From the NCBI GenBank assembly GCA_016763795.1, contig JAESTF010000333.1, positions 1 through 42,826 of the forward strand: 42,826 nt of DNA. Direction: 5' to 3'. The position numbers were made by a program, and so were the translations under genes. Every line of letters begins with the position of its first letter. Within the stretch, counting starts at the first letter, position 1. The DNA comes from Flavobacteriales bacterium. Lineage in GTDB: Bacteria > Bacteroidota > Bacteroidia > Flavobacteriales_E > Vicingaceae. This document shows, one piece after another, positions 3,996 to 17,489 of this stretch. The notes beneath the pieces were generated by a model, which had not been told where the DNA came from, searched no databases, and saw only the letters and a list, made by a program, of their open reading frames with translations.

Positions 3996-6143
3996 ATGCA
4001 ACAACTAAACCACATTCCTTTGTTACGTTTGTTAATCCCATTTATTCTCGGAATAATTGGAGTTGTTTACCTCAAACCAAATTCAGATTATCTCATTTTA
4101 AGTTTGGGAATTTTAGTAATTTTTTTTTTCGGTTTACTATTAGTTAAAAAAATAAATGCTAACTATAAAATAAGGTGGCTATTTGGAATATTCATTTACG
4201 CCAGTTTAATTTTATCAGGAGCTTCCTTAACCAGTTTGAAATATAAAAACACCAATAACACATCTAAACTTTTAACCGAAAAAAACAACCAATTATTAAT
4301 AGGAGAAATAATTGAACCACCTCAAAATAAAGCTAAAAGCATAAAAACGGTACTGAATATTAAAGGAATTAAAACACAAAGTAGTTGGATTGAAGGAACT
4401 GGAAAAGTGATTATTTACTTACAAAAAGATAGTTTATCCGATAAACTAAATGTTGGCGATGTAATTTCTTTTGAACCCAAGTTGAAAAATGTTCCTCCAC
4501 CAAAAAATCCAAATGAATTTGATTTTAGGAAATACCTTTCATTTCATTTAATACATCAACAAGCTTATTTGCGCTCTAATAATTGGAAATTAGTACAACA
4601 ATCTCCAACAACAGGTATTTTTAAATTTGCGAATAATAGTCGTAAATACTTAATTAAAACATTAGAAGAAAAAGGAATTAAAGGAAAAGAACTGGCGGTT
4701 GCATCTGCTTTAATTTTAGGGTATAAAGATAGTATTGATGCTCAACTAAAAAGTGCTTACTCAAGTGCTGGAGCAATGCATGTGTTAGCTGTTTCGGGTT
4801 TACATGTGGGTGTTATTTTTTTAATATTTAGCCAATTATTTTCATTTTTTGAGAAAATTAAATATGGTAAAATTATTAAAGGAGTTTTACTTATTATTAT
4901 ACTTTGGGTATATGCATTGCTTACAGGTTTATCACCATCAGTAATGCGAGCAGCAACTATGTTTAGTTTTATCGTTGTAGCAAAAATGACGAATAGAAAT
5001 TCTAGTTTCTTTAATACATTAGCTGCATCTGCATTGGTTTTACTTATTTATAATCCACTGTTAATTATGGAAGTTGGTTTTCAACTTTCTTATATGGCTG
5101 TTATTGGTATTGTAATTATTCAGCCTTGGATAAACGATAGAGTTACCTTGAAATACTGGTTGCCGCGTAAAGTTTGGGAAATAACAGCAGTTTCTATTGC
5201 CGCTCAAATTGCAACATTCCCGTTGGGATTATTGTATTTTCATCAATTTCCTAATTATTTTATGCTCTCTAATTTAATTGTAATACCACTTGCTATAGGT
5301 ATTTTGTATTTAGGGATAATTACCCTAAGTCTATCATTTATACCTGTGGTTGGCGAATATTTAGCACTCGGTCTAAATTATATTATTCAGTTTTTAAATG
5401 CCTCGGTTAATTTTATTGATTCATTACCTTACTCTTTATCAGAAAACATACGTTTTAGCGTTACGGATACTTGGCTCGTTTATCTTTTTATTATTTTCAT
5501 CATTACATTAATTGCTTATCGAAAATTTAAGTACCTATTGTTTGGATGTTGTTTTATTGCCGTCTTTTTGATGTCAACTTTCTGGGTAAGTTTTTCGGGT
5601 TTGGATCAGCGGAAAATTATTATTTATAACATACCTCAATTCTCTGCCATTAATTTTATTGATGGAGCTGATAATATTTTAGTTTCAGACATTAAGCTGA
5701 CTCAAAATAGGAGTAAGCTAATGTTTCACGTTCAAAATAATTGGATTAATAATGGTGTCGATAAAGAAAAGGTAGTGAACTTAGACCATCTCATTAAAAA
5801 ATATTCACTTTCTAATATTTATAGAATATCTAATAGGAACCTCTTTACAAAAAGAAATTATTTTCAATTCTACGACACTAAAATTGCTATAATTGACAAC
5901 AAATATCAACTTAGCCACAGTAGTGATAAATTGAATATTGATTTACTGTTGTTAACGAAAAATACACAACTTTCTATCAAAGAAATTCTTAGTCAATTTA
6001 ATCCTAAACAAATAGTAGTTGATGCTTCAAATTCTTCTTATACCTCACAACGTTTAAAAGATGAAGCAAATGAATACGAAGTTAATTGTTGGGTCGTTTT
6101 GCTGGATGGGGCTTACATTAAAAATATAAATCAAATTACCTAA
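3996..6143 (+). CDS. comEC: ComEC/Rec2 family DNA-internalisation competence protein
   Basis: Polytopic membrane protein of 715 aa. N-terminal OB/DUF4131-like region and competence-domain motifs (GAMHVLAVSGLHVG, LSPSVMRAATMF). The C-terminal ~180 aa shows no HxHxDH metallo-beta-lactamase motif. Confidence 0.85.
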   Translation: MQQLNHIPLLRLLIPFILGIIGVVYLKPNSDYLILSLGILVIFFFGLLLVKKINANYKIRWLFGIFIYASLILSGASLTSLKYKNTNNTSKLLTEKNNQLLIGEIIEPPQNKAKSIKTVLNIKGIKTQSSWIEGTGKVIIYLQKDSLSDKLNVGDVISFEPKLKNVPPPKNPNEFDFRKYLSFHLIHQQAYLRSNNWKLVQQSPTTGIFKFANNSRKYLIKTLEEKGIKGKELAVASALILGYKDSIDAQLKSAYSSAGAMHVLAVSGLHVGVIFLIFSQLFSFFEKIKYGKIIKGVLLIIILWVYALLTGLSPSVMRAATMFSFIVVAKMTNRNSSFFNTLAASALVLLIYNPLLIMEVGFQLSYMAVIGIVIIQPWINDRVTLKYWLPRKVWEITAVSIAAQIATFPLGLLYFHQFPNYFMLSNLIVIPLAIGILYLGIITLSLSFIPVVGEYLALGLNYIIQFLNASVNFIDSLPYSLSENIRFSVTDTWLVYLFIIFIITLIAYRKFKYLLFGCCFIAVFLMSTFWVSFSGLDQRKIIIYNIPQFSAINFIDGADNILVSDIKLTQNRSKLMFHVQNNWINNGVDKEKVVNLDHLIKKYSLSNIYRISNRNLFTKRNYFQFYDTKIAIIDNKYQLSHSSDKLNIDLLLLTKNTQLSIKEILSQFNPKQIVVDASNSSYTSQRLKDEANEYEVNCWVVLLDGAYIKNINQIT
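6026..6074 (+). repeat. Left copy of an att-like direct repeat, inside the comEC 3' end
   Basis: By hand alignment, 43 of 49 nt are identical to 14848-14896. This includes the exact 19-mer caacgtttaaaagatgaag (6048-6066 = 14870-14888). Confidence 0.6.
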
Positions 6144-6168
6144 TTTTAAGTATTATAAAAACAAAATT

Positions 6169-6486
6169 ATGAAGGCAGGAAAATTAATAGGAATCGTACT
6201 CGCTATTTTAGGATTAATAACTTTTATACTAATTATTACAGTATTTAATAATACTCTTTCAATTCCAAAAATTATAATTTGTGGTCCCTCATTTTTAATA
6301 GTTGGTGTAGCAATGATTATTTTTCCTGGCGGAAATATTACTGTCTCAGAAATTAATAATAAAACAAAATTAGGAGGCGAAATATGGTCTGGGGCACCAA
6401 CACTACATAAAATAGTTTGGATATTATCATTATTGCTAGGGACTGCTGCCGTTTTCTATCAACTAAATAAAATTGGATTATTGTAG
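6169..6486 (+). CDS. Small integral membrane protein (about 3 TM helices), unknown function
   Basis: 105-aa ORF with hydrophobic stretches LIGIVLAILGLITFILIITVF, IIICGPSFLIVGVAMIIFP and IVWILSLLLGTAAVFY. No family recognised. Confidence 0.5.
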   Translation: MKAGKLIGIVLAILGLITFILIITVFNNTLSIPKIIICGPSFLIVGVAMIIFPGGNITVSEINNKTKLGGEIWSGAPTLHKIVWILSLLLGTAAVFYQLNKIGLL

Positions 6487-6631
6487 ATATAAAATATTGT
6501 TTTTCAGTTGGTTATATTTGTTTTACTATTTTTTTGCTAAAGAATAACTTTATTTAGTTAATGGTATTCTATACATAATTAAAAACTATTAATTATTATA
6601 TTAGCATTCCACAAAAACAAATGATTATACT

Positions 6632-7474
6632 ATGGTAATAATTGGATACAGATCAACTTTAATTGGAGAAACTACTTTGTCTTTTACAACATGTGAAGAA
6701 TGTGGGACAAAAAACTCTTATACGGTTTTTACCTACGGAAGATATTTTCATGTTTTTTGGATACCACTATTTCCAATAGGAAAGACTTATTTAGCTGAAT
6801 GCTCTCATTGCAAAAAAGCATACAGTAAGGAGCGATTGTTTACCAAAGAAGTTAGAGAGGCTTTTCATACAGAAAGAGTTAGAACACCAGTTAAAAGACC
6901 ATTTTGGCACAGTATAGGGTCATTAATGATTTTAGGGATAATTGGCTTAAGCATTATTACTGCTCTAATAGCTATAGCGACTGATGATGGCTCTGCAGAA
7001 AAGAAAAGATTAGCTGAAGAACCTTTTAAAGAGGCATTAGAAATGGACCTAGCTAAATTAAGCAGCAACGTAGCACTTGATGATTCTTTAACTTTTTATA
7101 TTAAAGATTGCCTATCTTTTAGTTTAAATAATGAGGTGAATGAAGATGAGATAGAATATTATACAGAAATGAAGGAAGACAAAATTCTTATTTTATTACG
7201 GATTAGAGACATTAAGAAGATTAAGAAAAAGTCACGAAAAAAGCTAATAGAATTTATTGAAATGTGTGTGAATTTAAACGATGAACCGAATACAAGAGAT
7301 TTATATATTATGGTAAAAGGTAAATACACTCCAATATTACTTAAAACTCCTTTCGAATCTGATTTGGGTGGTTACTTAGCATCAAAGAGTGATCTTTACC
7401 CGTATTATGCAGATGATAACCAGAGCAAAGATTCGACAACTGTAGCGATAGAAGTAGTTATAAATTCTTTGTAA
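6632..7474 (+). CDS. Zinc-ribbon domain membrane protein, unknown function
   Basis: An N-terminal CxxC...CxxC ribbon (CEECGTKN...CSHCKKAY) encloses the FHVFWIPLFPIGK motif typical of zinc-ribbon membrane proteins. One TM helix follows (SIGSLMILGIIGLSIITALIAIA), then a ~160-aa acidic/basic C-terminal domain. Confidence 0.55.
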   Translation: MVIIGYRSTLIGETTLSFTTCEECGTKNSYTVFTYGRYFHVFWIPLFPIGKTYLAECSHCKKAYSKERLFTKEVREAFHTERVRTPVKRPFWHSIGSLMILGIIGLSIITALIAIATDDGSAEKKRLAEEPFKEALEMDLAKLSSNVALDDSLTFYIKDCLSFSLNNEVNEDEIEYYTEMKEDKILILLRIRDIKKIKKKSRKKLIEFIEMCVNLNDEPNTRDLYIMVKGKYTPILLKTPFESDLGGYLASKSDLYPYYADDNQSKDSTTVAIEVVINSL

Positions 7475-8259
7475 ATTAAACCAAAAATCAAAAAGCATTG
7501 AATTATTGATAATGACTAAATGGCTTGTTGTTATTAGAGTGTTAATTGATAGTATAATTCTTAGAGTCTTTATTCAGAACAAATTAACTAACCAACTTAT
7601 TCCCGCGGGTTATTTGCATATAATTAGTCATTATGTTACTTTTCTTGTAATTCTTAACATAATAATTTAAATAAACGCTCTTAATTGTTGTACATCTATT
7701 ATAAGTATAATGTTAAGGTATATATATGATATAGGAGACTTAAATTATATAAAGAACTGTTTTAGGTAATTCTTTAACATTTACTAGATGGATTAGGTTT
7801 TTTTGTTTTGAATTCATTGAAGTTGAAAATGAAAATATTTTCTCAATCAAGAAAGTTATGTTATTATAGATGGAAAACGGAGGAGTATAGAACACTATAC
7901 TTTCACCTAAATACAAAGGAAATGATAGTCCGGATGTAAAAGTAATTACAACTTGATACACTAAAAATGCTCAAAGAGAATAAACCACAAAAATACATAG
8001 AAAGTTTATGAATATATTGTTTCAAAACGAAATAATTTATTATATCAATTGATTTTCAGTGGTTTAGCAGTCATTCTTTTGCGAAGAATATAGCATAGTA
8101 AAACCTAATATCACTTGGACTTATTTTATTAGATCGAATTAATACGGTATGATACGTAAACACATTTGTGTGATTTTACTGATGAATAATATTCTTATAA
8201 TTTTTAATTTTTGGTCATTATTTAATTTAGAATAATTAAAAATAAAAAAAAGTAATTCT

Positions 8260-9126
8260 ATGTGTTCAGATATACCAAATTTTAAAGTCCAAAAAGAAAA
8301 TGTATGTATTTATAATGATGAATTTTCAAATTCTCGGAAGCCTATAAATATTGTTCAACTTAATCTTTTAAAAAATGCTGGGTGTGCAGGCGGATGTAAA
8401 TTTTGTGGACTTAGTATTTCTTCAGAAGTTGATCGAAAGACGACTGCAACTGAGAAGGACTTTCAAAATTCATTTAATGATGCTCGTAATTCAAATTCTC
8501 GTTTAGAACTTGTATTTCCAAGTGTTGGTGCTAATCAAATGGAAGTACTTGGGTTGTTGTCTAAAATGACTGATGTTATTAATGATAATTCAGATATTGA
8601 ATTGGCAGTTAATCCTGGAATTTGTACACGTGAAGATTTTTATTCACAACTAGCAGAACTGGGAGTCTCTAGATATAGAAATAACTTAGAAAATTCCCGT
8701 AGATTGTTTAAGGAGCTTGTACCTAAACGGTCACTTGCTCAAGACTCAAAATTACAATCAATGGATCTTGCACGAGCTGCAGGTTTAAAAGTAGATACTG
8801 GTTGGTTGTGCGGACTAGGTGAAAATGAAGCAGATATTAAAGATATGCTAGAGCTTTTAAATGTATCAAATCCAGATTCAATAACCTTAAATTTTTTTGA
8901 TCATCGTGAGAGCGCTGAAGATTTTGATTATACAACTCCTTCCCGTCAGACAGGGTTAGAAAGAATAACAGTACTCCGCACTCATTTTCCTGAAGTTGAA
9001 ATTACTTTAGGAGGTGCTCATGGTTTATGGCTTGGTTCAAAAGCAATTGATATCCCACAGATTAACGGGGTATATGTTGGAAGATTTCTTGACCATGGTT
9101 TACGAGAAGAAAGTAAAAAGCAGTAA
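8260..9126 (+). CDS. Radical SAM enzyme, divergent BioB/HydE/PylB-like subfamily
   Basis: CX3CX2C motif CAGGCKFC (C42/C46/C49, nt 8383-8406). Colinear with BioB landmarks: YRNNLENS vs YNHNLDTS, AAGLKVDTGWLCGLGEN vs AGIKVCSGGIVGLGET, DSITLNFF vs ESVPINML. Only 288 aa, and the BioB auxiliary-cluster Cys positions are not conserved. Confidence 0.8.
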   Translation: MCSDIPNFKVQKENVCIYNDEFSNSRKPINIVQLNLLKNAGCAGGCKFCGLSISSEVDRKTTATEKDFQNSFNDARNSNSRLELVFPSVGANQMEVLGLLSKMTDVINDNSDIELAVNPGICTREDFYSQLAELGVSRYRNNLENSRRLFKELVPKRSLAQDSKLQSMDLARAAGLKVDTGWLCGLGENEADIKDMLELLNVSNPDSITLNFFDHRESAEDFDYTTPSRQTGLERITVLRTHFPEVEITLGGAHGLWLGSKAIDIPQINGVYVGRFLDHGLREESKKQ

Positions 9127-9174
9127 ACAGCTATGAAATAGGAGATAATCAATGAAATTAGTTTAAAGTAGTTC

Positions 9175-10401
9175 ATGAAAACTAAAAAAACACCTCAAGT
9201 AGAGGTTCTTATTATTGGAGGAGGACAGGCTGGGTTGGCGATGAGTAATTGTCTAACGGGGTGTAATATTTCACATGTTGTAATAGAACGTGGAAAAATT
9301 GCTAATCGATGGAGGAATGAAAGTTGGGATTCACTCCGTCTTCTTACCCCTAATTATCAAACCCGTCTACCAAATTGGTGCTACAAAGGAAAAGACCTGA
9401 ATGGTTATATGAGTGTTCAAGAGTTAATTTCGTTTTTAGAAAACTATGCAAAATCTTTTAATTCTCCGATCAAGACTGGAGTTATTGTAGAGTCTGTTAC
9501 ACAACGAACAAAAGGATTTCAAATATGTACAGATGCAGGGACATGGGAAGCAAAATCTATAGTAATTGCTACTGGGCATTGTAATACACCATTTGTACCT
9601 AAATTTTCTAAGAATTTAAATTCAGAATACAAACAATTAATTTCTCATCAATATAGAAATCCTAAACAGATAGGTTCGGGAAAGGTATTGATTGTAGGTG
9701 GAAGTGCAACTGGAGCACAAATTGCTGAAGAATTGATAAATGCTGGAAGAAACGTAACATTATCAGTAGGCCGACATCGAAGACTTCCGCGTAGTTACCG
9801 TAATAAAGATATATTATGGTGGGTAGAAAAAATGGGAATTTTTTGTCAACCTGCAGATCCTGAATCTGAGCGGAATTACCCTGCTCCTCAGCTTATAGGA
9901 TCAGTTGATGGAAGATCTCTTGATGTTGGAATTTTACAAAACTTAGGAGTAAAGCTGGTTGGTAGAGTAACTAGTATAAAAGATCATTTAATACAATTTG
10001 ATTCTAATTTGGAACACGATGTTAATCATGCAGAAGAGGAGATGCGTGAACTTCTAGCTCGGATAGATGCTTATGCGACAAAACAAGGGTTCGATGAGAA
10101 AACCGAACGAATCAATTCGGTAAAAATAGAACCTACAGCAGTTGAAATTAATTTAAAACAAGATAATTTTGAAACTATAATTTGGGCAACAGGATATCGT
10201 AGAGCCTATGATTGGTTAAACATCGATATGCTTGATAAGAATGGTGAATTACAACATGTATCAGGGATAACAGAACAACCAGGAGTTTATGCATTAGGAT
10301 TGCGTAGACAACGTAAATATAATTCAAATTTTATTGATGGAGTTGGTGAGGATGCATCATTTCTTACGAGTCATTTAAAAAACTACATTTCAACCATATG
10401 A
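9175..10401 (+). CDS. FAD/NAD(P)-dependent oxidoreductase, flavin-monooxygenase (CzcO/FMO-like) type
   Basis: FAD fingerprint VLIIGGGQAGLA, WDSLRLLTPN motif, second dinucleotide site VLIVGGSATGAQIA, and a C-terminal ATGY motif (IWATGYRRAY). Confidence 0.8.
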   Translation: MKTKKTPQVEVLIIGGGQAGLAMSNCLTGCNISHVVIERGKIANRWRNESWDSLRLLTPNYQTRLPNWCYKGKDLNGYMSVQELISFLENYAKSFNSPIKTGVIVESVTQRTKGFQICTDAGTWEAKSIVIATGHCNTPFVPKFSKNLNSEYKQLISHQYRNPKQIGSGKVLIVGGSATGAQIAEELINAGRNVTLSVGRHRRLPRSYRNKDILWWVEKMGIFCQPADPESERNYPAPQLIGSVDGRSLDVGILQNLGVKLVGRVTSIKDHLIQFDSNLEHDVNHAEEEMRELLARIDAYATKQGFDEKTERINSVKIEPTAVEINLKQDNFETIIWATGYRRAYDWLNIDMLDKNGELQHVSGITEQPGVYALGLRRQRKYNSNFIDGVGEDASFLTSHLKNYISTI

Positions 10402-11768
10402 GGATGTTAGGTGGAAAATCCATAAAAGAACTAGGAAGAATGATTAGGACAGAAGGTCTTAAATGTGAGGAATTAACTGAAACGATACTGTCTGATATAG
10501 AATCTCGTAACAATCATCTCAAAGCTTTTGTGAGGACTACCGCTGAAAGAGCTTTTGAAGAATCTCGTTTCGCCCAAATAGAACTAGATAATGGTATTGA
10601 TAGGGGACCTCTTCATGGAATTCCTTACGCGATTAAAGATTTGTTTGATGTTGCCGGAGAACCGAATAGTGCTGGCACACCTTTATTAGAAGACAATATA
10701 GCAACAAAAGATGCAGATATTGTAACACGTATGAAGCGTTCGGGAGCGGTGTTAGTGGGGCAAACAAATACGAGTCCGTTAGGAGCTACTATTTTAGGAA
10801 TCAATCATGCATTCGGTACACCTCATAATCCTTGGAAAAAAGAAGCTTTTATTCCAGGTGGATCATCTAGTGGTTCAGCTGTAGCTGTAGCTTCTGGACT
10901 AATTCCATTTGCATTGGGTACTGATACAGGAGGTTCAATACGAGTACCTGCAGCTATGTGTGGAATCGTTGGTCTTAAAACAACCGTAGGAAAGATTGAT
11001 GTAAGTGGAATGAGTCCACTTTCTCCTACATACGATTCTATAGGCACCTTAACCCGATCAGTTAATGATGCATTATTGGTGTATGGAGCATTACAAGATG
11101 AACCAATAGATTGTGGTAAGCGTGTAGAAAAATTAAAGATTGGCCTTTGTGAAAATATATTTTTTGATGAAATAGAATTAGAAGTAAAAAATGCAGTGTT
11201 AGATGCTGCTAATACCCTTGCTAGTCTGGGTACAGAAATTTGTTCACTTAAATTACAGGAGGTTGACATTATCTATGATCAGATTAAAGAAACAAGTTTA
11301 ATCGCCACAGAAGCATATCCATTACATAAAAAAATAATTGAAAATTCGAGTATGGATTGGGTTACAAATTGGCTAAAAGTAGCCAGTAACTATTCAGTTG
11401 AACAAGTAGTACATTCACAAAAAAAAATAAAAGAACTTTCATTTCAACTCGATATTCGCACTAAAAATCTAGATGCCATAATCGTGCCTACTACACCAAT
11501 TGTTGCAAAGTTGGTTTCTAGCTGCGATTCATATGAATCTCACGCTAAGATATCTTCATTAATTTCAAGGAATACCCAAATTGGTAATATGGTAGGATGG
11601 TGTGGCATTGCACTCCCTTGTGGTATTAGTCAAAATGGTCTTCCTATAAGCCTTTTAATTTACACTGGTGCAAATAATGAGCATACTGCATTTAGTATTG
11701 CTAAATCCCTTGAGCAAGCCTTATTAATGAAGTTAGGTAGCTTAAAGCCACCATATATTTTTAATTAG
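10398..11768 (+). CDS. Amidase-signature (AS) family amidase
   Basis: Catalytic Lys context PYAIKDLFDV. AS signature GGSSSGSAVAVASG and nucleophile region GTDTGGSIRVPAA. The start overlaps the upstream stop by 4 nt (ATGA at 10398-10401). Confidence 0.85.
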   Translation: MRMLGGKSIKELGRMIRTEGLKCEELTETILSDIESRNNHLKAFVRTTAERAFEESRFAQIELDNGIDRGPLHGIPYAIKDLFDVAGEPNSAGTPLLEDNIATKDADIVTRMKRSGAVLVGQTNTSPLGATILGINHAFGTPHNPWKKEAFIPGGSSSGSAVAVASGLIPFALGTDTGGSIRVPAAMCGIVGLKTTVGKIDVSGMSPLSPTYDSIGTLTRSVNDALLVYGALQDEPIDCGKRVEKLKIGLCENIFFDEIELEVKNAVLDAANTLASLGTEICSLKLQEVDIIYDQIKETSLIATEAYPLHKKIIENSSMDWVTNWLKVASNYSVEQVVHSQKKIKELSFQLDIRTKNLDAIIVPTTPIVAKLVSSCDSYESHAKISSLISRNTQIGNMVGWCGIALPCGISQNGLPISLLIYTGANNEHTAFSIAKSLEQALLMKLGSLKPPYIFN

Positions 11769-11821
11769 GAGAATTATAAAACAATGGATTACGATATTAT
11801 TAATTTAAAAAATATACTTAA

Positions 11822-13075
11822 ATGAACGATATAAATAAAGAAACCTTATCAATAAAATTTTCTGAAACGCGAGAAGAAGCAAAAGAGGAATACGAAAAAC
11901 ATTTAGGCTCTTTTTTACGAGATAGTCCTGTTGTTGCAAGACGGGGTGATCCTGATGTTGCTGATTTGTTATTTGGAGACCCTCATGATCCTTCATTAAC
12001 TGGTCTTGGAGAGATACTACATACACAAGTTGATATTAGCCAAGAAAAAGGTTATCGATATGTACACCATATGGAAGAAGCACGAGCAGCAGCGGCAAAG
12101 GCTCTTTCACAACGTACTAGTTTAGATTTTGCAGTTGAAGATTTATTTCTTACAACAGGAGCTTTCTCTGGTTTAGTAACATGCCTGCAAGCTTTGTGCG
12201 AAAAAAATTCAGAAGTAGTATATTTTAGTCCTCCTTGGTTTTATTACCGATCTATGATTAAATCTGTAGGAGCTATTCCGAAAGGAGTTGATCTTAACCC
12301 TGAAGATTGGTCGATTCCTTTTGATAAATTGGCAGAGGCTATTGGTCCTAAAACAAGTGCTATACTAGTAAATTCACCACATAATCCAAGTGGAAAAATT
12401 TTTTCTGATAGTGAACTTTCAGAACTAGCTCAAGTTGTTTCAGCTGCGAGTAAACGATTGGGGCGCGATATTCCCATAATTTCGGATGAAGCTTACTCTC
12501 GTATTGTTTATGAATGTTCGCATGCCCCCACACCAGCAAAATATTATCCGGCAACCATTATAATATACACTTATGGTAAAACACTTCTAGCACCCAGTTT
12601 ACGTTTAGGTTATATGGTACTTGCTCCAGGATTTCCTGGTGCACTTAAGATGAGAAGAATGTTTGATGCGATTCAACCTATGGGAGGCTGGCTACTTCCT
12701 AGTTGTTTGGTACAGAGAGCACTGCCTGACCTAGAGTTGTTATGTGTTGATCTAGTTCAGCTTAAACATCGCAGGGATAAATTAGTTGAGGCGTTAAGAG
12801 AAGGAGGTTATACAGTAATCCCAGCTGAGGGTACATTTTACATGTTGGTAAAAAGTCCACAGTTAGATGACGAAGCTTTTTCACGTTACCTTGAAAGTCG
12901 TAATGTTTTAGTTCTTCCGGGATCAACACTAGAAGTTCCTGGTACTTTTCGAGTGTCACTTACAGCTTCTGATGAAATGATAGATCAAGCTTCAGAGGTC
13001 TTTAAATCAGGATGGCAACCCTTTTTTATTAATTATAATGAAGAAAAATACGATAAAATAAAACTCAATAAATAG
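11822..13075 (+). CDS. PLP-dependent aminotransferase, class I/II fold
   Basis: Motifs LVNSPHNPSGK and ISDEAYSRIVY. Putative PLP-lysine in YTYGKTLLAPSLRLGY. C-terminal FRVSLTAS. Confidence 0.85.
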   Translation: MNDINKETLSIKFSETREEAKEEYEKHLGSFLRDSPVVARRGDPDVADLLFGDPHDPSLTGLGEILHTQVDISQEKGYRYVHHMEEARAAAAKALSQRTSLDFAVEDLFLTTGAFSGLVTCLQALCEKNSEVVYFSPPWFYYRSMIKSVGAIPKGVDLNPEDWSIPFDKLAEAIGPKTSAILVNSPHNPSGKIFSDSELSELAQVVSAASKRLGRDIPIISDEAYSRIVYECSHAPTPAKYYPATIIIYTYGKTLLAPSLRLGYMVLAPGFPGALKMRRMFDAIQPMGGWLLPSCLVQRALPDLELLCVDLVQLKHRRDKLVEALREGGYTVIPAEGTFYMLVKSPQLDDEAFSRYLESRNVLVLPGSTLEVPGTFRVSLTASDEMIDQASEVFKSGWQPFFINYNEEKYDKIKLNK

Positions 13076-13264
13076 AATTTAAAATGATGTAAATGTTTAT
13101 TGCAGAAAAAGAAATGTAGAAATAAATTAACTAGTTTTGAAAATGAATTGTAGTTCAAATCGATAATAATAAAAGGAATTATTATAACGGTAATTAGTAG
13201 AAAGACTACACCTTAATTAGATTAGTTAGCAATAAATATATTAACTCACAACAAAAATACACGG

Positions 13265-14251
13265 ATGAAATTAGCAACAATAAATAATAATACAAGAGAT
13301 GGCGAATTAGTAATAGTTAATAGAGCATTAACAAAAGCTGTTCGAGTTCCTGAAATTGCTTCAACCATGCAAATGGCAATTGACAATTGGGGGAGTACTG
13401 AAGAAAAACTTAAAAATGTTTATGATTCGTTAAACTTAGGAACCGTAGATAATGCATTTGATTTTACAGAAGAAGGAGTTATGGCGATACTTCCAAGAGC
13501 ATATCATTGGGTAGATGCAAGCGCTTACGTAACTCATGTTGAGTTAGTTAGGAAGGCAAGAAATGCAGAGCTACCTGGTTCTTACTGGACAGATCCATTA
13601 GTGTACATGGGGGCATCTGATGCTTTTATTGGTCCATATGATGACATAGAGATAGAGAATGATGAATGGGGAATTGATTTTGAATCAGAAATTGCTGTAA
13701 TTACAGATGATGTACCGGCTGGAGTTGATTCTAAAGAAGCATTAAATCATATTAAATTAGTTACAATCGTTAATGATGTTACGCTTAGAAATTTAATTCC
13801 TCAAGAATTAGCCAAACAATTTGGGTTTTATCAATCAAAACCTTGGACCGCTTTTGCACCTGTTTCTGTAACATTAGATGAACTTGATGAAGCTTGGAAA
13901 GATGGAAAACTTCATTTACCTATACATTCAACTTTAAATGAAGAATTAATTGGCTCTCCAAATGCTGGAATTGATATGACTTTTGATTTTGGTGAATTGA
14001 TTGCTCATGCTGCAAAAACACGTTCTTTAATGGCAGGAACTGTCGTTGGTTCGGGTACAGTAGCAAATCAAGGAAGTCCTAATGGATCTAGCTGCCTTGC
14101 AGAACTAAGATGCTTAGAAATAATTAAAGATGGTGAAGCTTCAACTCCATTTATGACTTTTGGAGATAGAATTGAAATTGAAGTGAAAAATGATAGTGGT
14201 CATTCAATTTTTGGAAAAATTAATCAAGTTGTAAAACAATATAAAAAATAA
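13265..14251 (+). CDS. Fumarylacetoacetate hydrolase (FAH) family protein
   Basis: 328 aa. Typical N-terminus MKLATI...DGELVIV. Metal-ligand contexts IDFESEIAVI and VNDVTLRN. GTVVGSGTV near the C-terminus. Separated from the upstream gene by a 189-bp AT-rich spacer. Confidence 0.85.
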   Translation: MKLATINNNTRDGELVIVNRALTKAVRVPEIASTMQMAIDNWGSTEEKLKNVYDSLNLGTVDNAFDFTEEGVMAILPRAYHWVDASAYVTHVELVRKARNAELPGSYWTDPLVYMGASDAFIGPYDDIEIENDEWGIDFESEIAVITDDVPAGVDSKEALNHIKLVTIVNDVTLRNLIPQELAKQFGFYQSKPWTAFAPVSVTLDELDEAWKDGKLHLPIHSTLNEELIGSPNAGIDMTFDFGELIAHAAKTRSLMAGTVVGSGTVANQGSPNGSSCLAELRCLEIIKDGEASTPFMTFGDRIEIEVKNDSGHSIFGKINQVVKQYKK

Positions 14252-14327
14252 TCTATTCTTTGATTTTTACTTAAAAATTATTAGAATCAATTAAATTTCT
14301 ATTTAATATAATAATAAAGAGCTATTG

Positions 14328-14360
14328 ATCGCTGGCCTGAAACAAAATTGGGCCAGCGAT
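14328..14360 (+). other. Perfect 10-bp-stem hairpin downstream of the FAH gene (possible terminator or RNA/protein-binding site)
   Basis: atcgctggcc (14328-14337), a 13-nt loop, then ggccagcgat (14351-14360). The stem is GC-rich in AT-rich surroundings. No U-tract follows. Confidence 0.35.
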
Positions 14361-14847
14361 GGCTGTGAAAAGAGTTCACGAACAATCGAACAGTAAATAA
14401 GGAGTGAGTAATATATAAATTCGTAAAAACAAACAAAAGGGCTTCTCCTTTTGTTGTGGAGCAAATAATTACTTTAGTATTGTTTTAGCATTTGTATAGG
14501 GATGGTGGATAGCATAGGTTTACATGTCCACAGGACATCTAACGCTATCTTGATTTTTATTAAGATAAAGCAAAGTCAGAGAACGCAGTATGAAAAAATG
14601 AGGAAAAAGCCTTCTTAAGGCAAATAGCATTTTAAATACAAATAAACAACCACAGGTAAAATTTTTGAGCGATGACAAAATAAAGATTTAAAGATGCTGA
14701 GCCTTGTGCGGAAATTTTACATTATAAAGTCTAAACGACTACAAATGGCTCTATATAAAAGAACCAATTCTTGTCCTGTAATTTGACCTATCTTAAATAG
14801 TTATAGATGGATGAAAGGTTAATATGGTTATTTTAATCCTAAATAAA

Positions 14848-14896
14848 TTCAAACTCATCTTACACTTCTCAACGTTTAAAAGATGAAGAAAATGAA
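14848..14896 (+). repeat. Right copy of the att-like direct repeat
   Basis: 43 of 49 nt identical to 6026-6074. No similarity to comEC was detected immediately upstream of 14848. Confidence 0.6.
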
Positions 14897-14958
14897 CTCT
14901 AACAAAGTTGGTAGGCGATTTTATTAGAAGGTGATTTTACCCAAAAATATTTAACACC
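14848..14958 (+). pseudogene. comEC: Displaced, degenerate remnant of the comEC 3' end (last ~35 codons)
   Basis: Translates colinearly as NSSYTSQRLKDEENEL*QSW*AILLEGDFTQKYL. The intact end reads NSSYTSQRLKDEANEYEVNCWVVLLDGAYIKNIN. There are two in-frame stops and no upstream ORF. Confidence 0.55.
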
Positions 14959-15023
14959 TTTTGTCAATTGCGGACTTTTATCTCGTTTGCAAATGGCTAC
15001 TTTTACTTTTCAAAATTTTAGTT

Positions 15024-17489
15024 ATGAGAAAAATTATTGCAGTACTCTTGTTATTCATTTCTATAGCAACATTTGCTCAAAAACAAATGAACTCATCAGA
15101 AATTAAATTAGCATTAAAAAAGCTGAATATTTTAGGCAGCGTTTTATATCTTGCTGCACACCCCGATGATGAAAACACTCGATTAATTGCTTATATGGCC
15201 AATGAGAAATTGGTAAGAACAGGCTATTTATCTTTGACACGAGGTGATGGCGGGCAAAATCTTATTGGAACAGAAAAAGGACCTTTAATGGGTGTTTTAA
15301 GAACGCAAGAATTATTAGAGGCTAGAAAGCTTGATGGAGGAGAACAATTTTTTACACGTGCTGTAGATTTTGGTTATTCTAAAACGGCTGAAGAAACTTT
15401 TGTAAAATGGGATAAACAAAAAGTGCTGGCAGATGTTGTTTGGGCAATAAGAAAGTTTAGACCGGATGTAATTATTACTCGTTTTCCTCCTACAAAAAGA
15501 GCAGGACACGGACATCATACCGCATCAGCAATATTAGCAGCAGAGGCTTTTGATTTGGCAGCAGATCCAAAAGCATTTCCTGAACAACTTGCATATACAT
15601 CTGTTTGGCAACCTAAACGATTATATTTAAACACGAGTACTTGGTGGGATAAAGAGTTACCTCAAAAAGCAAAAGATAATCCAGCTAAATATATCACTAT
15701 TGATGTTGGAACTTACAATACTTTATTAGGAAAATCGTATTCTGAAATTGCTTCAGAAAGTAGAACAATGCATAAGAGTCAAGGTTTTGGTTCTGGAAAA
15801 GTACGAGGTTCTAAATTAGAATATTTAGAATTAGTTAAAGGAGAAAAAGGTGAGAATAACGATATTTTTGATGGTGTTGATATTTCGTGGAATAGAATAA
15901 AAAATGGCAATGAAATTAAAAAAATATTATCTGAAACAAATTATAGCTACGAAATAGAACACCCAGAAAGGATAGTTCCTCAATTATTTAAAGCATACCA
16001 ACTAATTGATAAATTACCCGATAGTGAACAATGGAAATGGGTGAAACTAAGTAAACTTAGAGAAGTAATTTCTACTTGTGCTGGTTTATTTGTTGAGGTT
16101 ACAGCTGAAGATTATAGTGTGGCTACTGGGACAGAAATAAAACTGACTACACGTTTAGTGAATAGAAGCAGTCTTAAAGTAGAATTACTTGACGCAAAAT
16201 ACGGAGAAAAGGATACTACAATTAATATTATGCTAGCTAATAATGAGACCTTAAGTTTTGAAAGTAGCTTTACTTGTTCAAATAATCAAAAAACAAACCC
16301 GTATTGGTTAAAACATGATTTTGAAGGGATTTACACTGTAGATTCTCAGAGTTTAATTGGAGTTCCGCAAAACCGTAGTTCTATATCAGTATTGTTTACT
16401 TTTAAAATTAATGATGTTTATTTTCCTGTCTTCAGAAATGTAACTTATAAACATACTGACAGAGTAAAAGGAGAAATTTATCGTCCGTTTGTAGTATTGC
16501 CAAAAGTAACGGCTAATGTTTCTGATAATGTATTTATTTTCTCAAATAGTTTACCTAAAGAGATTCGTGTGACTCTTCAAGCGCACAAAGAAAATGAAAC
16601 AGGAAATGTTTCCTTAAGCCTTCCTCTTGGTTGGAAATCTGAACCTTTATCTATTCAATATAATTTGATAAAAAAGAATGAAGAAATAATAGCTGTTTTT
16701 AATGTTACTCCATCAGCTAACGAAAGTGTTGGAGAAGTGAAAGTGATTTTGAATAATTTAGAGAAAACAGCTAAAAGTTTAATTGCGATTGAATACGATC
16801 ATATTCAAACCCAAACCTTATTACCAGAAGCAAAAGCGAAACTGGTTCGATTAAACGTACAAATTAAAGGCAAAAAAATAGGTTATATTAAAGGAGCAGG
16901 AGATGAAGTGCCATCTGCTTTAGAACAATTGGGTTATTCCATTACCATGTTGGATGAAAATAGCTTAAAGAATAATGATTTATCACAATATGATGCAATT
17001 GTTGCAGGAATAAGAACTTACAACACCAATGATTACATGGCGAATGTGTACGACAAATTAATGGAGTACGTAAAAAATGGAGGTAACTATGTAGTACAAT
17101 ACAATACGAATAGGCGAGTTGATACTAGAACAATGGCTCCTTACCCTTTAAAACTATCGAGAGATAGGGTTACGGTTGAAGAAGCTAAAACTACTTTTTT
17201 AGCTCCTGAACATACTATTATGAACACTCCTAATAAAATTTTAATGTCAGATTTTGATAATTGGGTGCAAGAAAGAGGTCTGTATTTTCCGAATGAATGG
17301 GATAAAAATTACACTCCTATTTTAGGTTGGAAAGATCCCAATGAAGAAATGGTGAAAGGAAGTTTGTTAGTTGCTAGTTACGGAAAAGGAAGCTTTATTT
17401 ATACAGGAATTTCATTTTTCAGAGAATTACCTGCTGGTGTTTCAGGAGCATTTAAGTTATTTGCTAATATTGTGTCTTATGGGAAATGA
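15024..17489 (+). CDS. PIG-L/LmbE family deacetylase with a large C-terminal extension ending in a ThuA/GATase1-like domain
   Basis: Signal peptide MRKIIAVLLLFISIATFAQ. PIG-L signature LAAHPDDENTRLI and RAGHGHH. C-terminal segment IGYIKGAGDEVPSALEQLGY...YDAIVAGIRTYNT. The ATG at 15024 is preferred over the TTG at 14961. Confidence 0.8.
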   Translation: MRKIIAVLLLFISIATFAQKQMNSSEIKLALKKLNILGSVLYLAAHPDDENTRLIAYMANEKLVRTGYLSLTRGDGGQNLIGTEKGPLMGVLRTQELLEARKLDGGEQFFTRAVDFGYSKTAEETFVKWDKQKVLADVVWAIRKFRPDVIITRFPPTKRAGHGHHTASAILAAEAFDLAADPKAFPEQLAYTSVWQPKRLYLNTSTWWDKELPQKAKDNPAKYITIDVGTYNTLLGKSYSEIASESRTMHKSQGFGSGKVRGSKLEYLELVKGEKGENNDIFDGVDISWNRIKNGNEIKKILSETNYSYEIEHPERIVPQLFKAYQLIDKLPDSEQWKWVKLSKLREVISTCAGLFVEVTAEDYSVATGTEIKLTTRLVNRSSLKVELLDAKYGEKDTTINIMLANNETLSFESSFTCSNNQKTNPYWLKHDFEGIYTVDSQSLIGVPQNRSSISVLFTFKINDVYFPVFRNVTYKHTDRVKGEIYRPFVVLPKVTANVSDNVFIFSNSLPKEIRVTLQAHKENETGNVSLSLPLGWKSEPLSIQYNLIKKNEEIIAVFNVTPSANESVGEVKVILNNLEKTAKSLIAIEYDHIQTQTLLPEAKAKLVRLNVQIKGKKIGYIKGAGDEVPSALEQLGYSITMLDENSLKNNDLSQYDAIVAGIRTYNTNDYMANVYDKLMEYVKNGGNYVVQYNTNRRVDTRTMAPYPLKLSRDRVTVEEAKTTFLAPEHTIMNTPNKILMSDFDNWVQERGLYFPNEWDKNYTPILGWKDPNEEMVKGSLLVASYGKGSFIYTGISFFRELPAGVSGAFKLFANIVSYGK

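Follow-up and report, generated by a model that had tools for sequence, protein, structure and literature searches.

The comEC locus of this uncultured marine flavobacterium is best read, with a probability of about one half, as a gene-end displacement scar: a foreign segment would have entered the tail of comEC and displaced the resident tail. The window, i.e. the whole stretch of DNA that was analysed, comprises 42,826 nt (JAESTF010000333.1, GCA_016763795.1; Flavobacteriales bacterium, Vicingaceae), from a genome of ~30% GC. Judged by comparison with relatives, positions 6144-14826 are a lineage-specific insertion with metabolic cargo of about 8.7 kb; comEC is the gene whose 3' end was targeted, and there is no sign of a self-mobile element at the island. 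The insertion would represent a clean, fairly ordinary case of an already known route of gene gain. The features of the locus are:

3996..6143, + strand: intact comEC (715 aa; DUF4131 and Competence domains; Pfam PF03772 2e-58, PF13567 8e-26)
5992..6143, + strand: duplicated segment, live copy (functional 3' end of comEC), aligning with 14827-14954
6026..6074, + strand: 49-nt high-identity block, left copy (43/49 against the remnant, 42/49 against L004, 41/49 against L002)
6144..14826, + strand: inserted cargo segment, 8.7 kb, missing from all sampled relatives at the comEC locus
6169..6486, + strand: gene (ORF) for a 105-aa predicted membrane protein, starting 25 nt past the comEC stop
6632..7474, + strand: gene for a 280-aa zinc-ribbon (Zn_ribbon_15) membrane protein (Pfam PF17032 2.7e-9)
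7475..8259, no strand: AT-rich non-coding gap within the insert (GC about 0.26)
8260..13075, + strand: conserved four-gene cassette (Pfam and NCBIfam matches)
8260-9126, + strand: cassette gene 1, BioB-like radical SAM
9175-10401, + strand: cassette gene 2, MSMEG_0569-like flavin oxidoreductase
10398-11768, + strand: cassette gene 3, amidase
11822-13075, + strand: cassette gene 4, class I/II aminotransferase
13265..14251, + strand: fumarylacetoacetate-hydrolase (FAH) family gene, last gene of the insert (Pfam PF01557, PF18288)
14252..14826, no strand: non-coding right end of the insert, junction with the remnant at about 14826/14827
14827..14954, + strand: remnant (pseudogene) of the resident comEC end, corresponding to the last ~150 nt of the gene, from alignment to the live end and the comEC profile match
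14848..14896, + strand: 49-nt high-identity block, right copy (43/49 against 6026-6074, 42/49 against the L004 comEC)
14955..15023, + strand: conserved spacer, probable PIG-L promoter/5' leader, following the comEC stop in empty-site relatives
15024..17489, + strand: PIG-L family deacetylase-like gene (Pfam PF02585 8.6e-14)

The intact comEC shares 77-81% amino acid identity with full-length Vicingaceae orthologues. An earlier note, made from the sequence alone, had pointed out that 6026-6074 matches 14848-14896 at 43 of 49 positions, including an exact 19-mer (6048-6066 = 14870-14888), and we could reproduce both observations. The match of comEC to the remnant is its sole significant self-match in the window (blastn E 1.1e-11; runner-up 0.005), and the local alignment of the pair scored 68, far above chance: 200 shuffles that preserved dinucleotides gave 28.2 +/- 2.6 (max 38; z = 15.4). 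A profile built from the comEC genes of relatives only, with the window's own comEC excluded, had 14832-14944 as its only match in the interval (E 1.3e-11); on the left this extra match breaks off sharply, at profile position 2002 of 2145, and at the right junction it begins only at 14832. The similarity had been described as stopping abruptly left of 14848, which does not hold: beyond a 13-nt deletion after 14848, positions 14827-14848 match 5992-6013 at 19/22, and it is at ~14827 that the homology ends sharply. Further lesions of the remnant are two in-frame stops (14900-14902, 14912-14914) and one inserted nucleotide near 14940, and the homologue of the ancestral comEC stop lies at 14952-14954; its translation, YTSQRLKDEENEL*QSW*AILLEGDFTQ, is the one given earlier, with the same two stops.

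Overall the two comEC ends are 29% diverged, and the divergence is uneven: 43/49 (88%) in the core versus 31/59 (53%) in the tail (Fisher p = 8e-5), the latter close to the ~55% previously estimated. This pattern parallels the conservation profile of functional comEC genes, within which the 49-nt block is simply the best-conserved stretch of the 3' end, coding for DASNSxYTSxRLKxEA. At the C-terminus the live copy is of the 'long' type, as in L002 and L006, and the remnant of the 'short' type (...ATTTAA) seen in the L004/L085 group. In a neighbour-joining (NJ) tree of comEC ends (~130-nt segment), remnant and live copy were weak sisters (73% bootstrap).

In the relatives L001, L003, L004, L084, L085, L088 and L089 comEC adjoins the PIG-L gene, with short gaps in L001, L084 and L089; in L004, L085 and L088 the PIG-L gene follows the comEC stop after ~50 nt, which is the empty site that the earlier note had proposed to look for, and which identifies the interval as a genuine insertion. 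Ancestrally, then, comEC was followed by the PIG-L gene. The latter probably has its true start at the ATG at 15024, which is conserved in the alignment with relatives, and the spacer in front of it matches those of L004 (59/71), L085 (59/69), L088 (60/71) and L100 (59/65). Because the remnant, the ~70-nt spacer and the PIG-L start are colinear with the comEC end of the relatives, 14827-14954 is the resident comEC end in its ancestral context, which bears out the suggestion that the downstream copy is the displaced original; the live end was consequently supplied by the incoming DNA, and the live tail, at least ~6075-6143, would have come in with the insert.

When the seven cargo genes were searched against ~150 comEC loci of relatives (tblastn), there was no match at the locus; the only matches were to the conspecific L083, the unrelated cassette contigs L080-L082 and weak ~24% aminotransferase paralogues. 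A downstream comEC remnant occurred in 0/107 other comEC loci. The comEC/PIG-L junction is a cargo hotspot whose content varies among Vicingaceae lineages (a lipoprotein; DUF6272-SiaC-SpoIIE; a 2375-aa T9SS protein; an LRR protein). In all cargo-bearing relatives the cargo lies between the comEC stop and the conserved spacer, and this junction cargo showed neither mobility genes nor repeats. Both junctions and the remnant of the window are present in conspecific contigs (99.7% nt) from another metagenome, in two assemblies (JGI 3300005056 / ENA ERZ23495903), so that the structure is not an assembly artefact.

The comparisons show an ancestor with comEC, a ~70-nt spacer and then the PIG-L gene. 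Into comEC, some 150 nt ahead of its stop, a segment of ~8.8 kb was inserted; the resident end was pushed downstream, where it stayed beside the PIG-L spacer and decayed. The incoming segment carried, in this order, its own comEC 3' end, two small membrane-protein genes, the four-gene cassette and the FAH-family gene, and the imported 3' end keeps comEC intact. We suppose that no site-specific recombinase was involved, that the donor was a related flavobacterium of similar composition, and that its cargo directly followed the comEC stop, as at the hotspot of the relatives. One join would have formed by homologous (RecA-type) exchange within conserved comEC sequence, for which the 49-nt block is the likeliest place only because it is the best-conserved stretch, and the other an illegitimate join at about 14826/14827. 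This may have happened by homology-facilitated illegitimate recombination of a linear fragment or, equivalently, by a single crossover of a circularised fragment with the comEC end. As to composition, profiling did not set the insert apart: its GC3, codon usage and tetranucleotide composition are within the host range. The cassette homologues elsewhere sit in unrelated, higher-GC contigs (GC3 0.42-0.63), so either the donor resembled the host in composition or the insertion happened long ago.

As an explanation, such a recombinase-independent, homology-anchored insertion is the best we have, at about even odds. Several points count against it. A donor-like arrangement (comEC followed by cargo, no remnant) was not found among about 150 comEC loci, and the place of a homologous crossover within comEC could not be pinpointed: sliding windows gave noisy identities, and even the nearest relatives reach only ~80%. 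Given the weak sister relation in the NJ tree, the sources of the two ends may be closely related lineages or even a single lineage. In its classical form, homology-facilitated illegitimate recombination usually removes DNA from the recipient, and an overlapping duplicate of ~80 nt is not its usual product; natural transformation, too, is not known from Vicingaceae. Finally, the observed topology is exactly the outcome of an integrase too.

That the island is a relic or trans-mobilised site-specific element, with a surrogate comEC 3' end in its attP, a crossover core inside 6026-6074 and a tyrosine or serine recombinase since lost or encoded elsewhere in the genome, would account for this topology (live end, cargo, displaced original end), for the empty site, and for a high-identity block with low identity to its right, which a crossover core plus surrogate tail would give. 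We consider it unlikely. The reported lack of integrase, transposase and tRNA in the interval was confirmed and extends across the whole window, and no recombinase, excisionase, transfer gene or decayed fragment of these was found in either. The 49-nt block is not a demonstrable att core, being no more alike between the copies (43/49) than between species (42/49 to L004). Moreover, the similarity runs about 35 nt further left across the 13-nt deletion, the lack of remnants at the 107 other loci argues against a family of comEC-targeting elements, the cargo is purely metabolic and host-like in composition, and the junction cargo of relatives is equally devoid of mobility genes and repeats. The att-site interpretation of the repeats is therefore not supported; of the three options offered in the earlier note, a relic or an element mobilised in trans lacks support, and homology-facilitated illegitimate recombination fits best, short of proof. 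Less likely again is a tandem duplication in which the last ~150 nt of comEC were copied in place, cargo later arrived after the first stop and the second copy decayed. It agrees with the sister relation of the copies, and a pre-existing duplicate would suit the position of cargo in relatives, always between comEC stop and spacer; it predicts uniform divergence, however, rather than a contrast between core and tail. Had identical copies decayed neutrally and uniformly, the live tail, which is under selection, would have had to change by an implausible ~30-40%; this approximates the whole distance between the window and other species (28-41%), which argues that the tails descend from different functional lineages. 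The copies also differ in C-terminal length class, and no relative has such a duplication minus cargo.

We regard as very improbable an island older than the sampled clade, with the empty sites arising secondarily by precise deletion between the comEC-end repeats. Such deletion would restore an intact comEC-PIG-L junction, and the divergence of the copies and host-like composition would suit an old event, but many independent precise losses would be needed (L001, L003, L004, L084, L085, L088, L089, L100 and others), 0/7 cargo genes occur anywhere in the loci of relatives, and the nearest homologues of the cassette are 55-75% identical and in unrelated higher-GC contigs. Chance similarity in AT-rich DNA, or misassembly, could be imagined given the low GC content and the metagenomic origin of the relatives' assemblies and probably of the window; both are refuted by the tests, i.e. 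by the shuffle score, by E values of about 1e-11 from blastn and from the independent orthologue profile, and by the recovery of both junctions in independent assemblies.

The preferred reading, a homology-anchored insertion, has parallels in the displacement of C-terminal (3') ends at rhs, CDI and T6SS effector loci, for which homology-facilitated illegitimate recombination (de Vries & Wackernagel 2002, PMC122324; Prudhomme et al. 2002, PMC122325) has been proposed (Jackson et al. 2009, PMC2935791; Kirchberger et al. 2017, PMC5361080, and references therein). There, the incoming DNA likewise shares the conserved upstream part of the gene and supplies a new 3' end together with the cargo behind it, the old end is moved downstream and survives as an orphaned or vestigial piece, a recombinase gene is not associated, and the mechanism is, as for comEC, deduced. 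Unlike the genes of those accounts, comEC encodes a housekeeping DNA-uptake channel and not a polymorphic toxin, its new and old ends are orthologous versions of one domain rather than alternative toxin tips, there is one displacement and no array, and the cargo is a metabolic cassette instead of an immunity gene. Integrative elements that insert into the 3' ends of tRNA or protein genes, with a surrogate gene end in attP (prophages, genomic islands, IMEs/ICEs) share with the locus the live gene with an element-supplied end, the displaced original end at the other side and the empty site in relatives; the comEC island differs by lacking integrase, excisionase and transfer genes or their relics, an identical core and recurrence at other comEC loci, and by its host-like composition. 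The varied, unrelated junction cargo across Vicingaceae, devoid of mobility genes, resembles flexible genomic islets, i.e. hotspots between core genes with homologous exchange in the flanks. When such islets are replaced flank to flank in the ordinary way, no scar remains; at this locus, the exchange would have had one end within comEC and so left a duplicated, decaying gene end.

Within the cargo, the 105-aa protein gene gave no match in Pfam or NCBIfam and is identical in the conspecific contigs L157 and L158. The zinc-ribbon gene is rare, its top non-self homologue (69% aa) being on a contig without comEC context. The gap that follows contains no ORF of at least 60 aa except one 73-aa GTG ORF, and neither it nor the right end of the insert gave Pfam (six frames) or Rfam matches. 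All four cassette genes occur in the same order in L080 and L082 (55-75% aa), and the incomplete contigs L081, L161 and L162 keep this order up to their limits; the FAH-family gene is absent beside the cassette in L080 and L082 and does not belong to its conserved part. The right end of the insert differs from the conspecific strain by 7 SNPs in 575 nt, versus about 0.27% overall.

The 3' end of comEC is present twice in the window, and the downstream copy is the displaced and decaying end of the resident gene, separated from the gene body by an 8.7-kb insertion with seven genes (6144-14826). The duplicate described in the earlier note was readily recovered: nucleotides 6026-6074, in the live end of comEC, and 14848-14896 agree at 43/49 positions, including an exact 19-mer that is also the longest exact run between these two core copies, and the downstream copy reads, as had been claimed, YTSQRLKDEENEL*QSW*AILLEGDFTQ. 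The similarity is not due to chance. The local alignment score of 68 lies 15 SD above that of 200 dinucleotide-preserving shuffles (maximum 38), and a blastn search of comEC against everything downstream in the window returned the repeat pair with E = 1.1e-11 and a runner-up with E = 0.005. A nucleotide profile built only from the comEC genes of other organisms matched 14832-14944 (E = 1.3e-11) and found no second comEC-like piece in 6144-15100. The abrupt loss of similarity to the left of 14848 that had been reported proved incorrect: 14827-14848 matches 5992-6013 at 19/22 positions across a 13-nt deletion, and the remnant, at about 14827-14954, therefore corresponds to the final ~150 nt of comEC. 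Its homology has a sharp left edge at 14827-14832, both in the alignment of the two copies and with the comEC profile. In addition to the deletion, the remnant contains two in-frame stops and, by alignment, one inserted nucleotide near 14940. Conspecific contigs with 99.7% identity (L157/L158; JGI 3300005056 / ENA ERZ23495903, two assemblies) likewise span the two junctions together with the remnant. Because these contigs from another metagenome cover both junctions, the displaced-end structure is real; chance and misassembly are refuted by the shuffles, the blastn and profile E values and the conspecific contigs.

ComEC relatives from genomes and metagenomes placed the window in the Vicingaceae (Flavobacteriales); the closest ComEC sequences share 77-82% protein identity, and an exact-protein look-up found no exact match on record for the window ComEC. 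The empty site that the insertion presupposes was found among these relatives. The comEC stop lies ~50 nt before a PIG-L family gene in L004, L085 and L088, and the gap between the two genes is 0.2 kb in L001, L084 and L089. An unoccupied site of this kind is a feature common to every insertion model, not to an integrative element alone. In our alignment A1 the remnant, the next ~70 nt and the start of the PIG-L gene are colinear with the comEC end, spacer and PIG-L start of L004, and the identity of the spacer between the window and L004, L085, L088 and L100 ranges from 59/71 to 59/65. This colinearity and the conserved spacer together identify the remnant as the end of the resident gene, which has kept its ancestral position. 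The PIG-L ORF as called mechanically begins with TTG 14961, which falls within the conserved spacer (window 14961-15023); alignment with the relatives indicates that the true start is probably ATG 15024 (MRKIIAVLLL..., signal peptide). The live comEC end and all that follows it up to 14826 lie between the remnant and the body of comEC, in the following order:

Gene 1: 105-aa membrane protein
Gene 2: 280-aa zinc-ribbon protein
7475-8259: gap of 785 nt between the zinc-ribbon and radical SAM genes, very AT-rich (GC about 0.26)
Gene 3: BioB-like radical SAM protein
Gene 4: MSMEG_0569-like flavin oxidoreductase (TIGR04046, 341 bits, under the cutoff of 498)
Gene 5: amidase
Gene 6: class I/II aminotransferase
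Gene 7: FAH-family hydrolase
14252-14826: non-coding stretch of 575 nt that separates the FAH gene from the remnant

We then compared the two gene ends. The identity between the copies is uneven, 88% in the core and 53% in the tail, i.e. the remaining comEC 3' end to the right of the core (Fisher p = 8e-5), and this divergence pattern follows the degree of conservation along functional comEC genes. The live tail shares 53% identity with the remnant and 59-72% with the orthologues. Had the copies started out identical, with neutral decay of the remnant only, the live tail must have changed by 30-40% since the event; the tail distance between the window and other species (28-41%) is as large as that, so most of the difference presumably arose in functional genes of separate lineages. 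As the remnant is in its ancestral context, the live tail would then be the imported one, and we infer from these comparisons that it was brought by the incoming DNA as a homologous but independently evolved gene end. The remnant shares the short ...ATTTAA ending of the L004/L085 group, and the live end has the longer form of L002/L006. In a NJ tree of the ~130-nt segment the remnant and the live copy pair weakly (73%), a pairing that weakens a 'star-like' three-point distance argument (copies no closer to each other than to the orthologues), to which we preferred the core/tail heterogeneity. Sliding-window identity against 11 orthologues showed no clear mosaic or crossover breakpoint inside comEC, the relatives being too distant. 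The pairing in the tree and the lack of a breakpoint suggest that the donor was probably a fairly close relative, and the host-like composition of the insert agrees with this (cassette homologues elsewhere have a GC3 of 0.42-0.63).

The process that we favour, with a probability of about one in two, is a recombinase-independent, homology-anchored integration with one exchange in comEC and one illegitimate join. The homologous exchange would have occurred within conserved comEC sequence and the illegitimate join at about 14826/14827, either from a linear fragment by homology-facilitated illegitimate recombination or from a circularised fragment by a single crossover. The same process has been proposed for C-terminal displacement at rhs and T6SS loci (PMC5361080); such displacement is known from polymorphic toxin loci, whereas comEC is a housekeeping gene. 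The event is of a known kind, in a gene and a lineage where it was previously undescribed, and it extends 'C-terminal displacement' to a housekeeping gene of an uncultured marine flavobacterial family. It provides a well-resolved natural case in which DNA was inserted into the coding end of a core gene and a substitute end kept that gene intact, with the old comEC end left behind as a datable scar.

In the Vicingaceae, the junction between comEC and the PIG-L gene is a hotspot of gene gain. The inserts found there range from 0 kb (L004, L085, L088) and 0.2 kb (L001, L084, L089) to 0.7 kb with a lipoprotein gene (L003), 1.2 kb with an LRR/T9SS gene (L100), 3.2 kb with a DUF6272-SiaC-SpoIIE partner-switching module (L002, L015) and 7.7 kb encoding a 2375-aa T9SS protein (L006). 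In the relatives the cargo always follows the comEC stop and precedes the conserved ~70-nt spacer (L001-L006, L015, L084-L089, L100), and no mobility genes were found in it. Since this cargo starts after the comEC stop, a donor with cargo at that position would have the usual layout of the locus. A tblastn search with the seven proteins found these cargo genes, and with them a donor layout, at none of ~150 comEC loci drawn from genomes and metagenomes, a sparse sampling in which the closest relatives are about 80% identical at the amino acid level.

The earlier note had read the repeats as att sites bracketing an integrative element. The insertion is genuine; the att reading is unsupported, with no recombinase, no identical core and no recurrence. 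An integrase-type element whose recombinase was lost or acts in trans would fit the topology, but every element-specific test failed, and we consider such an element unlikely. Pfam assigned neither a recombinase nor a transposase to any ORF, inside the interval (as the earlier note had stated) or elsewhere in the window, and there is no tRNA across the window, which outside the interval contains housekeeping genes. Six-frame Pfam scans (E<=1) of 7475-8259 and 14252-14830 revealed no decayed recombinase, and no Rfam match (E<=1) in 5800-15200 pointed to a structured RNA as the true target. The core copies of the window agree at 43/49 positions, and each of them, the live copy as well as the remnant, agrees with L004 at 42/49; the core encodes the conserved motif DASNSxYTSxRLKxEA. 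No att core is needed because gene conservation accounts for the 49-nt block; the evidence says that the repeat is not an att core, or need not be one. A downstream comEC 3' remnant was found in 0/107 other comEC loci (those with >=300 nt downstream), nor was there a comEC remnant inside the relatives' own inserts, so there is no sign of a comEC-targeting element family. The composition profile suggested earlier did not set the insert apart from the host: GC3 is 0.15-0.24 in the insert and 0.15-0.26 in the host genes, the codon-use likelihood lies inside the range of the host, and the tetranucleotide distance of the insert (z <= 2.1) stays below the host maximum of 2.9. Total GC is raised at 8.5-13 kb (0.35-0.38), which stems from codon positions 1 and 2; we rejected it as a sign of recent foreign origin since the insert resembles the host in GC3, codon usage and tetranucleotides. 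The case cautions against taking every duplicated gene end for an att site: what looks like a core here is explained by gene conservation.

The uneven core/tail divergence also speaks against a local tandem duplication followed by insertion of the cargo, which we regard as improbable. Even less credible is that the 8.7-kb block is a recombinase-less mobile cassette, with the captured comEC 3' end as a recombination handle for homing, whose spread among Vicingaceae would rely on transformation and a RecA-dependent single crossover; such a cassette would leave intact the very DNA-uptake gene on which it depends and deliver a radical-SAM/flavoenzyme/amidase/aminotransferase pathway. That the island is ancient and was repeatedly and precisely lost in the relatives seems very improbable.

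Apart from the displacement, the insert contains a four-gene cassette at 8260-13075 (radical SAM, flavin oxidoreductase, amidase and aminotransferase). All four genes were found in the same order in L080 (3301-8019) and L082 (670-5357), and the truncated contigs L081, L161 and L162 keep this order as far as each extends. The homologues share 55-75% amino acid identity and their GC runs from 0.35 (window) to 0.60; the other cassette-bearing contigs are unrelated and GC-richer (GC3 0.42-0.63). The cassette may resemble the 'Nit1C'-type clusters associated with nitrilases, an amidase taking the place of the nitrilase, and with its patchy distribution and putative pathway it may merit biochemical attention separate from the displacement. 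Homologues of the zinc-ribbon gene sit in other genomic contexts. Six-frame translations of the gap at 7475-8259 gave no Pfam match (E<=1), nor was there a Rfam match; this gap may be the seam of two separately acquired modules. In L080 a 46-aa ORF lies directly 5' of the radical SAM gene, with no obvious counterpart in the gap. A sigma-70 promoter scan gave fewer matches than in shuffles and was uninformative; Bacteroidota promoters depart from the sigma-70 consensus. The three terminator-like hairpins of the stretch at 14252-14826 (14455-14432, 14621-14609 and 14766-14746) all lie on the minus strand, and the stretch may represent the leftovers of deleted minus-strand genes. It differs from the conspecific strain by 7 SNPs in 575 nt, ~4x the overall rate, with none in the adjoining 128-nt remnant.

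In ComEC (3996-6143) Pfam detected the DUF4131 and Competence domains and no metallo-beta-lactamase domain. The C-terminal ~200 aa are without a Pfam match, yet the motif (I/V)DASNS...CW.VL.DGA is strongly conserved across the Vicingaceae, a conservation that explains the selection for an intact comEC end. At 6132 the conspecific strain has a C->T change (position 3313-3315 of L157/L158) by which CAA becomes TAA. Its ComEC ends in ...IKNIN* and has 712 aa instead of 715, which puts it in the length class of L002; evidently the protein can do without its final three residues.
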